Shown: positions 2,982 to 64,000, counted from the first letter of the stretch. The stretch: 64,000 bases of DNA from Escherichia coli (GCF_013315695.1 NZ_CP054356.1), one strand, 5' to 3'. A program made the numbers and translations. Notes: a model not told the origin generated them from the letters alone.

Positions 2982-5969
2982 TTAAGGCTGTTTTTTGTAC
3001 TGACTGACATCAACTGCTCGCAAAGGACGATACTTCCCTTCAGCCAGCTTCTTATTGTTTTTCCAGATATAGTCCCCTGTCAGATTAATGTGCTCCCAGC
3101 CCAGCGGAGACAAATGTGACAACAATTGCTCATTAATATGTAGCCCTTTCTTTTTCAGCAGGTTAATGGCGTTTTCTATATATACGGTATTCCACAAAGT
3201 GATTGCGGCAGTGAGCAGCGTAAGCCCACTGGCGCGGTAACTCTGGTTTTCAATACCACGATCCCTTATTTCTCCCAGACGATGCATGAAGACAGCTCTG
3301 GCAAGGGCATTCCGGGCTTCCCCTTTGTTCAGACCTGCCTGAACCCTACGACGAAGCGCCGGATCGCGGAACCAGTCCAGCATGAACAGTGTTCGCTCAA
3401 TACGACCAATTTCTCTTAACGCCTTAGCAAGGCCATTCTGTTTCGGATAACTGGTCAATTTTTTCAGCATCAGAGAAGCGGTCACTGTTCCCTGTTTTAT
3501 TGAGGTCGCCAGTCTCAGAATTTCATTCCAGTGTATTTTTATCTCTTTGATATTCAGGGGGGTTGTGGAGATAATTGACTGTAGAGCAGGATAGTTATCA
3601 GCTTTACCTTGAATAAACAAACGTTTGTCATGCAGATCCCGGATCCTTGGGGCAAAAGCGAATCCCAGCAGATGCATTAGTGCAAAAACATGCTCCGTGA
3701 AACCTGCTGTATCGGTGTAATGTTCCGTTATATCAAGGTCACTTTCGTGATACAGAAGACCATCAAGTACGTGGGTGGAATCACGAACACGACTGATTAC
3801 TTTGGTATAAAACGGACTATATTGATCTGAGATATGCGTATAAAACTGCACCCCAGGTTCCTGACCGTACTTCAAATTAACCTGACCGGCATAGCGCCCA
3901 TGACTGCCAACCCTAAAATTCTGGCCGTCAGAGGATGAGGTGGAACCGTCTCCCCATAATGCCGCCAGCGGTCGTGACTTCTGGGCATTAACCAGTTCTG
4001 CCAGTGCAGCAGAGTACGTTTCATCACGGATGTACCATGCTTGTATGTTTTCCAGCGAAGCTCGTGTGGTTCCCGGACAGGACTCTGCCATTTTTTCCAA
4101 CCCTAGATTGATGCCGTCCGCCAGGATAGTGGTTAGTAGTAAACGATTATCCTGAGGACGGATTAGCGGATTCTTAAGATGAGTAAAATGTCGCGAGAAG
4201 GCAGTCCATCGCTCGACTTCATCAAGTATCTCTGTAATTTTGGGGTGCGGTAGCATGTTGTAAATCAGGTCGGCCAGGGGAGAGACTGTTGAAGGAACGC
4301 TGTTATCCAGTGGGGTGATCTTTACACCTTTATCTGAAATATCCACATCAGGAAGCTCCCCTGCGACAGCCATTGCGTTAACTTCCTCCAGACGGGAGGC
4401 CAGTAGAGTCAGTCTGGCATTAAGATAAGCCCCGCATTCTGTGCCAACAGGTAAATTTAATAGGTTATTATTTAATAACTTTTCGAAATCATCGTTAGGC
4501 ATAAGATAATCATCAAAGTTTTTGTAGCGCCGGGAGCCCCTGACCCAGATATCACCCGCCCGCAGCGCCCCCTTTAGCTCATTCATTGCGCAAATTTCAT
4601 AGTATTGTCGGTCAATGCCTGAGGGGGTGACCACCATCTTTCTCCAGCTCTCAGGAATGAAATCCAGTGGTGCCGATGCAGGAACCTTTCGTAGCTGTTT
4701 ACGGTACATATCACGAATAGTTTCAAGGGCATCATTAAGCGGCAACGCTGCCGAAGTGGCTCTCAGTTGCAGGGCCGATAGAAAACGAAAAGAATATTTG
4801 CGCAATGTACTGAATTTTTCGGTAATAAGATGAAGCGGCTCAAAATTATCCTTACGTGCAAGAAGCTTTGTTTCCTCCAGACTGGCGACAAAATCGTCCC
4901 ACGGTAACACTCGTTCAATAGCAGACAGAGGATCTTCGCCTGCATTGCGTGCATCCAGGATAGCCTGGCCAACAGAAACATACTGACGTAACTTTTGCTG
5001 TATCAACTTGCCCGTTTTCTGAAGACGCTCAGCCTGCTGATGTTTTGCCCGACTGAACATGCTGCCTAGAATACGTTCATGCAGTTCTATAATTTCATCA
5101 ATGATTGTGGCTCTGGCCTCAGTCAGTACACAGACCATCGTTGCGTATCGACGAGCAGGGGAAAAATCAGCCAGATCGCGACTGCTCATTTTGCGGCCCT
5201 CACGCGCGAGTTTCAGCAATCGGTTCTGGTGAACGGTTCTCTCCACTCCTTCCGGCAGCGCCAGAGCTTCAATAGCGTTAAGGCGGTCAATGTGTTGCAG
5301 GACATTCTTTCCATTGATTTTCCCTGGAGGTTGAAGCAGCCACGTCAAACGGGATATTTGTTTTTCATTTGTCACCAACAGGGCATCAAGCGCAGATTTA
5401 TGCGTGATATCAAGGTGCGCATTCAGCGTTGTATACACCGTTTTATCACCCAGTGTCATTGCTTCTGCACAGGTACGTTCCAGAACATCAATGCCTGGAA
5501 TAATAATTCGCTGTTGATGCAGGTACTTTAGTAACTCCTCTGCGATAAGTATGCCTCTGTCCGTTCTGGTAGACAGAGGGAGCAGATGCCGGATACATTC
5601 TTTCTGAAGTGCACCGTTAAAGGCTTTCAGTTCAAGATATCGATAAAGTTCCCTCATATGCTCACGTCTGGTGGTATCACGACCGGAAACGTATTCCTGC
5701 CAAAGTTCTGCTGATAACTTAAGTCGAGCGCCAATGGTTTTTAGCAATTTTGCGGGTGGGGATGATTTTTTATCCGGGGCAAACCCAATACTTTTCAGAT
5801 AACAGAGAAGAACGGCAAAACCAAACCGGCTGGCAGGTTTACGGTGAGCATTGATAATTGCCAGATCCTGCTCACTGAAATACGTCATTCGAGTCAGTGT
5901 TAACTCATCGTCTGGCAATGCCAGTAATGATTCTCTTTCCGATAGAGAAAGAATCTGCCTCCTTGCCAT
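2982..5969 (-). CDS. tnpA: Tn3-family transposase TnpA, 995 aa, intact
   Basis: Uninterrupted 995-aa ORF with Tn3-family transposase length and organisation, distinct in sequence from the Tn2/Tn3 TnpA at 9012-12017. Confidence 0.9.
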   Translation of the reverse strand: MARRQILSLSERESLLALPDDELTLTRMTYFSEQDLAIINAHRKPASRFGFAVLLCYLKSIGFAPDKKSSPPAKLLKTIGARLKLSAELWQEYVSGRDTTRREHMRELYRYLELKAFNGALQKECIRHLLPLSTRTDRGILIAEELLKYLHQQRIIIPGIDVLERTCAEAMTLGDKTVYTTLNAHLDITHKSALDALLVTNEKQISRLTWLLQPPGKINGKNVLQHIDRLNAIEALALPEGVERTVHQNRLLKLAREGRKMSSRDLADFSPARRYATMVCVLTEARATIIDEIIELHERILGSMFSRAKHQQAERLQKTGKLIQQKLRQYVSVGQAILDARNAGEDPLSAIERVLPWDDFVASLEETKLLARKDNFEPLHLITEKFSTLRKYSFRFLSALQLRATSAALPLNDALETIRDMYRKQLRKVPASAPLDFIPESWRKMVVTPSGIDRQYYEICAMNELKGALRAGDIWVRGSRRYKNFDDYLMPNDDFEKLLNNNLLNLPVGTECGAYLNARLTLLASRLEEVNAMAVAGELPDVDISDKGVKITPLDNSVPSTVSPLADLIYNMLPHPKITEILDEVERWTAFSRHFTHLKNPLIRPQDNRLLLTTILADGINLGLEKMAESCPGTTRASLENIQAWYIRDETYSAALAELVNAQKSRPLAALWGDGSTSSSDGQNFRVGSHGRYAGQVNLKYGQEPGVQFYTHISDQYSPFYTKVISRVRDSTHVLDGLLYHESDLDITEHYTDTAGFTEHVFALMHLLGFAFAPRIRDLHDKRLFIQGKADNYPALQSIISTTPLNIKEIKIHWNEILRLATSIKQGTVTASLMLKKLTSYPKQNGLAKALREIGRIERTLFMLDWFRDPALRRRVQAGLNKGEARNALARAVFMHRLGEIRDRGIENQSYRASGLTLLTAAITLWNTVYIENAINLLKKKGLHINEQLLSHLSPLGWEHINLTGDYIWKNNKKLAEGKYRPLRAVDVSQYKKQP

Positions 5970-60671: not shown

Positions 60672-61157
60672 ATGATAATGAGATGTTTAACCCATATTAC
60701 TCTGGTAACGGTGATACAGTTTATCGCCTGTTATCTGGCTGGTTGGGGGAATGCCGAAACAATTTTTATGCTGTTCTTCATAGTACTATGGCAGGGACTG
60801 TTTATATGGTTGTTCTCTCAAATACGAAAAAAACGGAATGTGTCGGATGAGTTTAAGTTTAGTAAAGGCGTTTGGTATATAACGATGCCAGTATCTTCCT
60901 TACTCTCTCCATTATTAAGCCTGATGGTTTTTATCATTGGTACACTATACGAATTAAGGCGAGTTAGTGGTTGTGTAAGCGTAAGAGAATGGATGCAATC
61001 TCAGGTAAATGAACAAACTAATGAAGATTTGCATCTGGATTTTGATAATATGGATTTTCATCGTACTAATCCTGCAACAGGGTTACCTATGTCAGGTATT
61101 GGTGTGGATATCGGTGGTAATTCATATGGTTATAGTTCAAAACGATATGATGAGTGA
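60672..61157 (+). CDS. traS: Entry exclusion inner-membrane protein TraS (divergent), about 150-161 aa
   Basis: Hydrophobic ORF between traG and traT; assignment by synteny, since TraS is poorly conserved. Confidence 0.6.
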   Translation: MIMRCLTHITLVTVIQFIACYLAGWGNAETIFMLFFIVLWQGLFIWLFSQIRKKRNVSDEFKFSKGVWYITMPVSSLLSPLLSLMVFIIGTLYELRRVSGCVSVREWMQSQVNEQTNEDLHLDFDNMDFHRTNPATGLPMSGIGVDIGGNSYGYSSKRYDE

Positions 61158-61202: not shown

Positions 61203-61937
61203 TTGATGAAAATGAAAAAATTGATGATGGTTGCACTGGTCAGTTCCACTCTGGCCCTTTCAGGGTGTGGTGCGATGAGCACAGCAATCAAGAAGCGTAA
61301 CCTTGAGGTGAAGACTCAGATGAGTGAGACCATCTGGCTTGAACCCGCCAGCGAACGCACGGTATTTCTGCAGATCAAAAACACGTCTGATAAAGACATG
61401 AGTGGGCTGCAGGGCAAAATTGCTGATGCTGTGAAAGCAAAAGGATATCAGGTGGTGACTTCTCCGGATAAAGCCTACTACTGGATTCAGGCGAATGTGC
61501 TGAAGGCTGATAAGATGGATCTGCGGGAGTCTCAGGGATGGCTGAACCGTGGTTATGAAGGCGCAGCTGTTGGTGCAGCGTTAGGTGCCGGTATTACCGG
61601 CTATAACTCAAATTCTGCCGGTGCCACACTCGGTGTAGGCCTTGCTGCTGGTCTGGTGGGTATGGCTGCAGATGCGATGGTGGAAGATGTGAACTATACC
61701 ATGATCACGGATGTACAGATTGCAGAGCGTACTAAGGCAACGGTGACAACGGATAATGTTGCCGCCCTGCGTCAGGGCACATCAGGTGCGAAAATTCAGA
61801 CCAGTACTGAAACAGGTAACCAGCATAAATACCAGACCCGTGTGGTTTCAAATGCGAACAAGGTTAACCTGAAATTTGAAGAGGCGAAGCCTGTTCTCGA
61901 AGACCAACTGGCCAAATCAATCGCAAATATTCTCTGA
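61203..61937 (+). CDS. traT: Surface exclusion / serum-resistance lipoprotein TraT, about 243 aa
   Basis: Translation [42 protein letters not shown]... matches recalled TraT; a stem-loop follows the stop. Confidence 0.92.
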
Positions 61938-62139
61938 ACCTCGTCAGGAGGCTGATCTGACCGGCCTCCTTGCTGACGCCTCGCGTTGCTCGTTGTCCAA
62001 CCCCGGGATGTAACAAAATAAATTTTGTCACCTCCCGGCGTTTCCGAAATAAATATGAAAACACTGAGCGGTTGTGCAAATTCTTTGTGCGACCGTGAAG
62101 TGTTGCCGGCGAAGCCGGGATCTTCCGGAGAAAGTCATT

Positions 62140-62877
62140 ATGACATCAGACAATATCGCTGAATATGTTGGTGAGAATAATCAATTTACTGAGAAGCCTG
62201 TAACTGAATACCCCCCGGTGATACAGGATAATACAGTGACCACTAAAGACTATCTGTACAGCAATAATATTGATACTGACCTTTTAGTGGTTATCGGAGG
62301 GCTTATTGTTATATTGTTTCTCATGATGCTTATCATGTACTTTATTAATTCTCTCAGGCATAAGGAATTAACTGAAATACTGGAAAAAATATCTTTTCCT
62401 GAAAAATCCGGGAGCAATTTGCTTAAACCGGAGGCGGTCAGCTGTAATTTGTTGTCCCTGTGTGTGCTGGCACCGGTACTCTGTACACCCAGAAAGCTGG
62501 CAGAAGTCTCCAGGGAGATCATCGTGGCGAGTGCGCAGGAAATTGCATGGACGCCGGGGAGCAGTCGTATTGATGGTCATCAGGGCGAAAATATTACCTG
62601 GTCTCTGTCATCGCAGTCTCCTGCCGATAAGTATGATCTCATCAATAAAACCTCCCGTGTTTCTCCTGACAGTGGCCGTTTTTATGAACCGGACACAGTT
62701 CTGGATCACCGTGAACGGGTACGCCTTTTTATTCAGATCCAGTTTCCGCACGGGAGTGACTGGTCTGAAGTATTGCGACTGACTGACATTGTTACAGAGA
62801 AGGTCTCTTCCGGCAGGGCTGCAGGCGGGTATCACCACCGGCATACAGGGTACACCTGGTCTGTTTCTGTGAATTAA
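62140..62877 (+). CDS. Hypothetical single-pass membrane protein, about 245 aa, inserted between traT and traD
   Basis: GGAGA RBS 9 nt upstream; one predicted TM helix ([22 protein letters not shown]) and a roughly 180-aa C-terminal domain; lies downstream of the traT stem-loop. Confidence 0.45.
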
Positions 62878-62927
62878 CCCCACATCATCCTTTTCTGCCC
62901 TGTTCCAGATTTTCCCGGAGTTTCATC

Positions 62928-64000
62928 ATGAGTTTTAACGCAAAGGATATGACCCAGGGCGGTCAGATTGCGTCCATGCGTATCCGCATGTTCAGCCAGA
63001 TCGCCAATATCATGCTTTACTGCCTGTTTATTTTTTTCTGGATACTCGTTGGTCTGATTTTATGGGTAAAAATAAGCTGGCAGACGTTTGTGAACGGCTG
63101 TATTTACTGGTGGTGTACCACGCTGGAAGGCATGCGGGATTTAATCAAGTCCCAGCCAGTATATGAGATCCAGTATTACGGCAAAACCTTCCGGATGAAC
63201 GCTGCCCAGGTACTGCATGATAAATATATGATCTGGTGCGGAGAGCAGCTATGGTCCGCATTCGTTCTGGCCACAGTTGTGGCACTGGTTATTTGCCTGA
63301 TCACCTTCTTTGTTGTCTCCTGGATTCTGGGGCGTCAGGGTAAACAACAGAGCGAAAATGAAGTCACAGGTGGTCGTCAGCTGACAGACAATCCGAAAGA
63401 CGTTGCCCGGATGCTGAAAAAAGACGGCAAGGACTCCGATATCCGGATTGGCGACCTGCCGATTATCCGGGATTCCGAAATCCAGAACTTCTGTCTGCAC
63501 GGCACGGTCGGGGCCGGTAAGTCGGAGGTTATCCGTCGTCTGGCCAACTATGCCCGTCAGCGCGGTGATATGGTGGTGATTTATGACCGTTCAGGGGAAT
63601 TTGTTAAAAGTTACTATGATCCCTCCATCGATAAAATCCTGAATCCGCTGGATGCCCGCTGTGCCGCATGGGATTTGTGGAAGGAGTGCCTGACACAGCC
63701 GGATTTTGATAATACCGCAAATACTCTGATCCCTATGGGTACAAAAGAGGACCCGTTCTGGCAGGGTTCAGGACGTACCATTTTTGCGGAAGCGGCGTAC
63801 CTGATGCGTAATGACCCCAACCGCAGCTACAGCAAACTGGTGGACACACTGCTTTCCATCAAAATTGAAAAACTGCGTACCTTCCTGCGTAATTCACCGG
63901 CAGCCAACCTGGTGGAAGAGAAAATTGAGAAAACGGCGATTTCCATCCGTGCTGTGCTGACCAACTACGTGAAAGCCATCCGTTACCTGCAGGGGATTGA
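62928..64000 (+). CDS. traD: Coupling protein TraD (VirD4-like), 5' portion only; continues beyond the window
   Basis: Translation [34 protein letters not shown]... with Walker A GTVGAGKS; no stop within the window. Confidence 0.9.

Follow-up and report, generated by a model that had tools for sequence, protein, structure and literature searches.

yhfA, between traT and traD, is best explained as a long-standing but dispensable gene of F-like transfer operons

Introduction

A 64,000-nucleotide stretch of Escherichia coli DNA (GCF_013315695.1, NZ_CP054356.1; the whole stretch is hereafter called the window, and positions are counted from its first letter) ends within the transfer region of an MPF_F/MOBF conjugative plasmid. 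Between the surface-exclusion gene traT and the coupling-protein gene traD, and on the same strand as both, lies an open reading frame (ORF) of 245 codons that is absent from the F plasmid. A preliminary description, made from the sequence alone, took this ORF for an extra gene inserted at a late date, with a possible function in exclusion, defence or modification of the cell surface. The locus raises the question of what this gene is, how long it has belonged to the operon and what its product may do for the plasmid that carries it. In the present study, the ORF is identified as yhfA, a gene best explained as a long-standing but dispensable member of the transfer operons of R100-type and Klebsiella-type F-like plasmids. 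For the yhfA family there is neither a domain model nor a published phenotype, and no structure has been solved for it or recognised as related.

Results

Identity and distribution of yhfA

The ORF is the yhfA gene of plasmid R100, an already catalogued gene and not a new insertion. It is intact in both the ORF listing and the raw sequence, running on the + strand from an ATG at 62140 to a TAA at 62875-62877, and 1,051 bp around it are 100% identical to pUTI89 and to many other E. coli plasmids of the IncF group, the pUTI89 copy being annotated by RefSeq as the hypothetical protein WP_000199901.1. The corresponding ORF of R100 (NR1), which likewise lies between traT and traD (WP_000199905.1), has the same length of 245 amino acids and agrees with the window protein at 237 of 245 residues (97%, with 8 substitutions), and nothing of substance distinguishes the two. 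The same level of identity, 97%, was found with a protein of pEB3 that carries the annotation 'YhfA Protein in tra region of some IncF plasmids'. The name dates from the annotation of R100, and the gene is in the public annotation of thousands of plasmids; in the description of pEntH10407, the ORF was named YhfA, reported as present in R100 and not in F, and matched best to the pUTI89 protein (PMC2762410, 2009). The absence from F is plain in the alignments: the traT-traD gap of F measures 252 bp, has no ORF and resembles the window only in a common spacer (251-252 bp in two more F-like plasmids), as opposed to 990 bp in the window, where traT runs to 61937 and the first base of traD is 62928. 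The gene described as extra and inserted is therefore present here and missing from F, but it is neither novel nor specific to a lineage. The searchable literature gave no function or phenotype for yhfA, the plasmid papers that name the gene only listing it.

The gene is common on plasmids. A tblastn search found the YhfA protein in 2,021 plasmids of PLSDB, with at least 80% of its length covered in 1,794 of them (~89%). Close copies were carried by 1,209 of 5,426 complete E. coli genomes (~22%; at least 80% of the gene was covered in the copies of 1,156 genomes), and 1,397 of the 1,401 places at which they occurred were on plasmids. A comparison with related plasmids had been proposed in the preliminary description. 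Among approximately 4,000 plasmids with the same flanking ends of traT and traD, the ORF is present in approximately 1,770, and in the others homology breaks at 62121/62122. The gene is lacking from F, from pSLT-like plasmids and from roughly half of the F-like plasmids of E. coli.

Homologues with 22-34% identity were found in the same slot of every divergent IncF backbone whose context was examined, the occupants including those of an IncFIC-like E. coli plasmid, a Klebsiella grimontii plasmid and approximately 1,600 Klebsiella IncFII(K)-type plasmids. Two E. coli variants, P0033 and P0103, likewise lie between traT and traD, and one lineage without any traT (L012) still has a homologue before traD. 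Altogether, in 15 of 15 loci examined (E. coli, IncFIC-like, Klebsiella and the one without traT), the gene preceded traD and had the same orientation. The Klebsiella IncFII(K)-type and IncFIC-type proteins (WP_074186016.1, WP_202395549.1 and QMR33273.1) share with the window protein not only this position but also an acidic N-terminal tail, a single transmembrane helix, a basic linker and a C-terminal domain of ~140 amino acids with PG..R.D, W, Q, GG and GY motifs, although at 22-34% identity they are shorter (221-230 amino acids) and contain more cysteines.

Outside these plasmids the family appears to be essentially absent, being confined in our searches to F-like plasmids of Enterobacterales. 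An exhaustive phmmer search against 1.84 billion representative sequences returned 53 matches, nearly all of them fragments of yhfA itself, and two profile searches of a set of 5.8 billion proteins found only members from E. coli, Salmonella, Klebsiella and Serratia. A scan of 100,044 species-representative genomes yielded only two copies, which were 99-100% identical and contaminant-like: one is in a metagenome-assembled genome labelled 'Lachnospiraceae' (CAAGKF010000127.1, L016) and the other in 'Acinetobacter idrijaensis' (JQCU01000648.1, L017). These almost certainly reflect assembly or binning contamination and not real hosts.

The confinement bears on the possibility that YhfA is cargo unrelated to transfer, accommodated in a permissive slot and providing protection against phages at the membrane level (pilus-specific phages included) or a benefit to host fitness. 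Such cargo could be dispensable for F conjugation, as yhfA is, and could have a guanine-plus-cytosine (GC) content somewhat below that of the flanking genes; moreover, the slot does collect other genes and insertion sequences (L005, L014, L012, L007 and pEntH10407; see below). However, it would be unusual for mobile cargo to occupy one and the same position in all of the backbones examined, including those with a TraD identity as low as 45%, and the gene is almost never found off F-like plasmids, whether in the complete E. coli genomes or among the species representatives, where only the two contaminant-like copies turned up. No enzymatic or effector domain is recognisable in the protein, PADLOC-DB 2.0 has no family for it, and four divergent members gave nothing significant against PADLOC or PHROGs (the best E-value, 0.006, came from PADLOC and concerned the N-terminal and transmembrane region of one homologue). 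A defence function thus finds no support from PADLOC, and we consider that there is only a small chance that YhfA is cargo of this sort.

Long residence, loss and exchange of modules

The backbones that carry homologues in the same slot have TraD proteins that are only 45-78% identical, and long residence of the gene is therefore favoured. On these sequence comparisons, repeated loss or replacement in F, pSLT and their relatives appears to be a better explanation than the late acquisition that had been suggested from base composition. The GC content of yhfA, at 45.4%, is indeed lower than that of traT (49.3%), traD (50.0%) and traG (51.1%), yet the adjacent traS-like ORF stands at 37%, so a low value is nothing exceptional for this stretch of the operon. 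At the same time, TraT and TraD of one plasmid without yhfA (L002) are 99% identical to those of the window, and near-identical backbones that differ in the presence of the gene indicate that gain and loss by recombination are ongoing. Homology with F ends right after the last hairpin of the spacer, at 62121/62122, and restarts at the traD ribosome-binding site, so that ~795 bp in the window stand in place of ~56 unrelated bp in F.

YhfA evolves much faster than the products of the neighbouring genes: relative to the Klebsiella plasmids, identity is 23-28% for YhfA, as opposed to 83-86% for TraT and 77-78% for the first 357 amino acids of TraD. In a further plasmid (L021), the N-terminal tail, the transmembrane helix and the linker are encoded by ~107 initial codons of yhfA that cannot be aligned with the window (35-50% nucleotide identity; 4001-4320, corresponding to 62140-62460 of the window), whereas identity is mostly 95-98% in the flanks, which comprise the region for the C-terminal domain, traT and traD. 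The periplasm-facing and transmembrane module has therefore been swapped as a block and the cytoplasmic domain kept. For the family as a whole, the alignments point to a hypervariable module of N-terminal tail, transmembrane helix and linker that is exchanged by recombination, joined to a constrained C-terminal domain. The P0103 variant (L022) has a related alternative N-terminal module.

Selection on yhfA

The ratios of nonsynonymous to synonymous substitution (dN/dS) show that yhfA is a genuine gene whose protein product is maintained by purifying selection. Pairwise values for the whole gene are 0.19-0.45; for the C-terminal domain they are 0.14-0.26 in all but two near-identical pairs, and the N-terminal module gave 0.4-0.55 where the two sequences were well diverged and ~1 in a few close comparisons, for which the counts were small. 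It could be argued that the ORF is a relic devoid of function, or that its annotation is an artefact of an expanded intergenic region, considering that it is labelled only 'hypothetical protein' and that many truncated or frameshifted variants are present in databases. The latter are mostly single sequences from short-read assemblies, however, and ~89% of the plasmid matches are full length. Together with the low dN/dS of the C-terminal domain, the confident fold model (see below) and the length, architecture and invariant motifs that homologues keep at 22-34% identity, this largely refutes such an explanation, to which we assign hardly any probability. A frameshifted remnant of a known gene, which the preliminary description had named as an outcome that would undo its proposal, is ruled out as well: the 245-amino-acid frame is intact and under purifying selection, and no library gave a match to a known family.

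Architecture of the YhfA protein

The protein has one strong hydrophobic segment, at amino acids 48-69 (Kyte-Doolittle score 3.2), and the single transmembrane helix noted earlier was thus recovered both by hydropathy and by an AlphaFold2 model, which was made with an alignment of 26 family sequences. In this model, amino acids 1-43 are disordered, with a predicted local distance difference test (pLDDT) score below 40; a long helix at amino acids 46-85 includes the transmembrane segment and is followed by a low-confidence stretch at approximately 86-99; and amino acids 100-245 form a domain whose pLDDT is mostly 87-96, falling to 54-67 in a loop at 161-180. The order of elements in the C-terminal domain (~147 amino acids) is strand-helix-strand-strand, loop, strand-helix-strand-strand. 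The invariant residues of the family cluster in it: P139, G140, R143, D145, W154, G179, Q201, G229, G230, G237 and Y238. The two halves of the domain could be aligned end to end with hhalign, albeit weakly (E = 0.018, probability 2.5%), and they may have arisen by an ancient internal duplication, for which the alignment is suggestive but does not establish the case.

YhfA is predicted from sequence and model to be a bitopic inner-membrane protein. In 26 of 26 homologues, the N-terminal tail is acidic (mostly 1-3 lysines or arginines versus 5-9 aspartates or glutamates), 3-5 lysines or arginines occur within the 15 residues after the transmembrane helix, and the C-terminal domain contains 3-7 cysteines. 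Under the positive-inside rule, the acidic tail and the basic residues after the helix predict a periplasmic N-terminal tail and a cytoplasmic C-terminal domain. The N-terminus is thus probably periplasmic, which is the reverse of the cytoplasmic location first assumed. Considering that these charges and the cysteines put the conserved domain in the cytoplasm, a role in modifying the cell surface is unlikely. A TraT-type lipoprotein was considered separately and rejected: there is no match to PF05818, the N-terminus is acidic and has no signal peptide or lipobox, and the hydrophobic segment at 48-69 is the only one in the protein.

Searches for relatives of known function agreed with the initial impression that the C-terminal domain is not a recognised one. 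Neither the window protein nor any of 26 homologues had a significant match in Pfam, the ABM family (PF03992) included, and NCBIfam, PHROGs and a profile search against the sequences of the PDB gave nothing significant for YhfA. A Foldseek search against AFDB50 matched YhfA itself, under the names 'YhfA' or 'conjugative transfer protein', as well as twelve uncharacterised proteins from Pantoea, Enterobacter, Citrobacter, Kosakonia, Phytobacter and Pseudomonas (E ~1e-6 to 5e-4, 10-16% identity); similarity to ABM and NIPSNAP ferredoxin-like domains was insignificant. At the level of the model, the domain is best described as a putative ferredoxin-like alpha/beta sandwich that has no identifiable relatives of known function, and the ferredoxin-like alpha+beta sandwich domains (ABM/IsdG-type, NIPSNAP and ACT-like) may be its closest counterparts. 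The homology and structure search that had been proposed at the outset thus produced homologues, in R100 and in divergent IncF plasmids, but no relative with a known function.

A cytoplasmic domain held at the inner membrane invites comparison with fertility inhibition, in which the coupling proteins of foreign plasmids are the targets of PifC, Osa and FipA. By analogy, the tethered domain of YhfA could hinder the coupling protein or ATPases of rival plasmids that reside in the same cell. The gene is dispensable, fast-evolving and encoded beside the gene for the plasmid's own coupling protein, and its domain is predicted to lie on the cytoplasmic side of the inner membrane, where coupling proteins are located. 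On the other hand, YhfA has no sequence or fold similarity to known fertility-inhibition proteins, and we came across no description of this region being used by R100 or R1 to inhibit other plasmids. The proposal is an analogy, and we regard its chances as slim.

Expression and relation to entry exclusion

An indirect indication of when the gene is expressed comes from published RNA sequencing of the IncFII(K)-IncFIB plasmid pBIC1a (PMC6286996), in which an ORF between traT and traD, placed in the family by position alone and observed in one plasmid in a heterologous host, reached 8 reads per kilobase per million mapped reads (RPKM), compared with 7 for traD, 10 for traI, 282 for traT and 231 for traS. 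In three K. pneumoniae plasmids of the IncFII(K) type (L009, L010 and L011), the sole annotated ORF before traD is a yhfA homologue; traT is annotated in L009 and L011, and the DNA upstream of the ORF is unannotated in L010. The pBIC1a ORF would thus follow the repressed transfer genes and not the constitutive exclusion genes, and the drop in expression after traT fits termination at the hairpins 3' of that gene.

These values weaken the suggestion that YhfA is an additional factor for exclusion or plasmid discrimination in a plasmid-carrying potential recipient, where its variable N-terminal module would sense components of the donor and its cytoplasmic domain would block entry or signal. TraS, which recognises TraG, offers the natural comparison: both proteins belong to the traG-traS-traT-traD neighbourhood, both are assigned to the inner membrane (by prediction in the case of YhfA), and both diverge extremely between related plasmids. 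The very fast evolution of YhfA relative to the backbone, the block replacement of its periplasm-facing module between plasmids that are otherwise 95-98% identical, and the dN/dS of that module, which is 0.4-0.55 in well-diverged pairs and ~1 in some close ones, are all properties that an exclusion determinant might have. However, YhfA has no sequence similarity to TraS or TraT and no family match in NCBIfam or Pfam, and its constrained part is the predicted cytoplasmic globular domain. The positional ORF of pBIC1a is expressed ~30-fold below traS and traT and on a level with traD and traI, whereas exclusion genes need constitutive expression. Furthermore, all three TraS types (R100-type, F-type and one more) were found in plasmids that have yhfA and in plasmids that lack it, and one YhfA type occurs with different TraS types, so that the presence and type of yhfA are independent of the type of TraS. 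We consider an exclusion role unlikely, though we leave it a modest chance.

Features of the locus

Features of the window around yhfA are collected in Table 1. An in-frame GTG at 62074 would give a reading of 267 amino acids, which is an unlikely start: the extension would lie inside the hairpin-rich spacer that F has as well, and the alignment of all homologues begins at the ATG. A promoter scan of the + strand between traT and yhfA detected no sigma-70-like site, the sole match overlapping the start codon and being within chance expectation. The stop codon of yhfA is 50 nt from the start of traD.

Table 1. Positions of yhfA and neighbouring features in the window.
Feature	Position	Strand	Basis
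traT, surface-exclusion / complement-resistance lipoprotein	61206..61937	+	RefSeq annotation of the identical pUTI89 stretch; ORF listing
Spacer, 184 bp, common to F, R100 and pSLT-like plasmids	61938..62121	+	Alignments, RNA fold
Segment setting the window plasmid apart from F	62122..62916	+	Alignments
yhfA ribosome-binding site GGAG, 9 nt 5' of ATG	62127..62130	+	Read from sequence
yhfA coding sequence, 245 amino acids + stop	62140..62877	+	ORF, R100 identity, dN/dS
N-terminal tail, amino acids 1-47, acidic (2 K/R vs 9 D/E), predicted disordered and periplasmic	62140..62280	+	
Single transmembrane helix, amino acids 48-69	62281..62346	+	Hydropathy, AlphaFold2
Juxtamembrane linker, amino acids 70-98, basic start (RHK); helix continues to ~85, remainder low confidence	62347..62433	+	
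Conserved C-terminal alpha/beta domain, amino acids 99-245, predicted cytoplasmic	62434..62874	+	AlphaFold2, alignments, dN/dS
traD ribosome-binding site GGAG, 7 nt 5' of ATG	62917..62920	+	Read from sequence
traD 5' part (type IV coupling protein), ends at window edge	62928..64000	+	

The spacer that follows traT folds into four or five hairpins (minimum free energy z-score -6.2), located at approximately 61946-61970, 61999-62042, 62060-62104 and 62106-62118. The first of these is terminator-like, lies just 3' of traT and corresponds to the stem-loop after which the preliminary description had correctly placed the ORF. The spacer is 87-99% identical among F, R100 and pSLT-like plasmids, with or without yhfA downstream, and a 39-nt core of it recurs, at ~82% identity, in two Klebsiella plasmids. 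An Rfam scan of 61800-63000 gave no match. The hairpins may serve as a terminator or as a stabiliser of the abundant traS and traT transcripts.

Upstream of traT, a 161-amino-acid ORF between traG and traT (60672-61157, 37% GC) is the equivalent of the R100-type entry-exclusion gene (TraS); its product is 99% identical to that of the R100 ORF at the same position and is labelled by RefSeq only as a 'hypothetical protein'. The TraS proteins of nine compared F-like plasmids fall into at least three types, with 19-31% identity between types.

The slot between traT and traD also holds other DNA in some plasmids. A gene with a DUF2726 domain follows the yhfA homologue and precedes traD in L005 (3936-4439); L014 has an extra hypothetical ORF of 203 amino acids (1655-2266) together with a frameshifted, unannotated yhfA; and L012, the lineage without traT, has an ORF of 86 amino acids at 3103-3363. 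NCBIfam gave no match for these three additional ORFs. In L007 (2356-3380), and also in pEntH10407, an IS66-family insertion (IS66/ISEc8) truncates yhfA. The traT-traD gap of the pSLT-like plasmid L004 is 376 bp, ~125 bp more than in F, and the additional DNA (~2720-2850) reads as a 37-codon relic, MPLSELLCHMTNGNPFS, an in-frame TGA and then LFAVLVVCAAVLYFLKKRK, with a short tail, a transmembrane-like helix and a basic KKRK end. It may be the decayed 5' remnant of a yhfA-like gene, or else a small membrane peptide.

Downstream of traD, an opposite-strand vapBC pair lies between traD and traI in F (L018 4967-5592), and vapC begins just 3' of traD in L003, L004 and L014. In the plasmid type of the window, in R100 and in L002, traI follows traD directly. 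The vapBC pair and an intact yhfA were not seen together among the few plasmids sampled, a number too small to call an association.

Discussion

The position of yhfA immediately before traD, its predicted topology and the expression of its positional counterpart in pBIC1a lead us to propose, tentatively and with less than even confidence, that its product is a non-essential protein of the inner membrane that assists or modulates the F-like transfer apparatus. According to this proposal, yhfA would share its transcription with traD and traI, within the repressible transfer programme, and YhfA would act in the donor, on the cytoplasmic side of the inner membrane, where its conserved cytoplasmic domain could work beside the ATPases of type IV secretion, TraD and possibly TraC. 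We infer the topology, the co-transcription and the site of action alike. The gene is dispensable, as F conjugates without it. F itself has several non-essential small inner-membrane Tra and Trb proteins, such as TraP and TrbI. They are dispensable and anchored in the membrane, their genes lie inside the tra operon, and only a subset of F-like plasmids has them, which is also true of YhfA, although no sequence relationship between them and YhfA was found and YhfA is absent from F. As a weak lead, a preprint has described a co-selection link between variation in traC and variation in yhfA among plasmids of sequence type 131 (ST131).

Several observations weigh against an accessory role in transfer. 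First, the first 357 amino acids of TraD are 99% identical in L002, which has no yhfA, and there is therefore no sign that TraD has co-adapted to YhfA. Second, YhfA diverges far faster than TraD and TraT (23-28% versus 77-86% identity), which is unusual for a structural partner of the core machinery and better fits a role in specificity, competition or interaction with the host. Finally, the expression values belong to an ORF assigned by its position, on a single plasmid outside its natural host.

An extension of the accessory proposal would accommodate the rapid divergence. YhfA could represent a new class of type IV secretion accessory, in which the C-terminal domain would bind TraD or TraC and the variable N-terminal module would confer plasmid-specific discrimination, making YhfA a third determinant of exclusion, competition or gating beside TraS and TraT. 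We consider this extension rather improbable.

In summary, yhfA lies inside the transfer operon of R100/R1-type, pUTI89-type and ST131-associated F plasmids, and its family is also present in Klebsiella IncFII(K) plasmids of the pKpQIL and pKPN3 kind. The carriers include a large share of the clinically most important plasmids, with F-like resistance and virulence plasmids numbering in the thousands. Should YhfA prove to be a discriminating accessory of the kind outlined above, it could help to determine which of the IncF resistance plasmids spread or are able to coexist.

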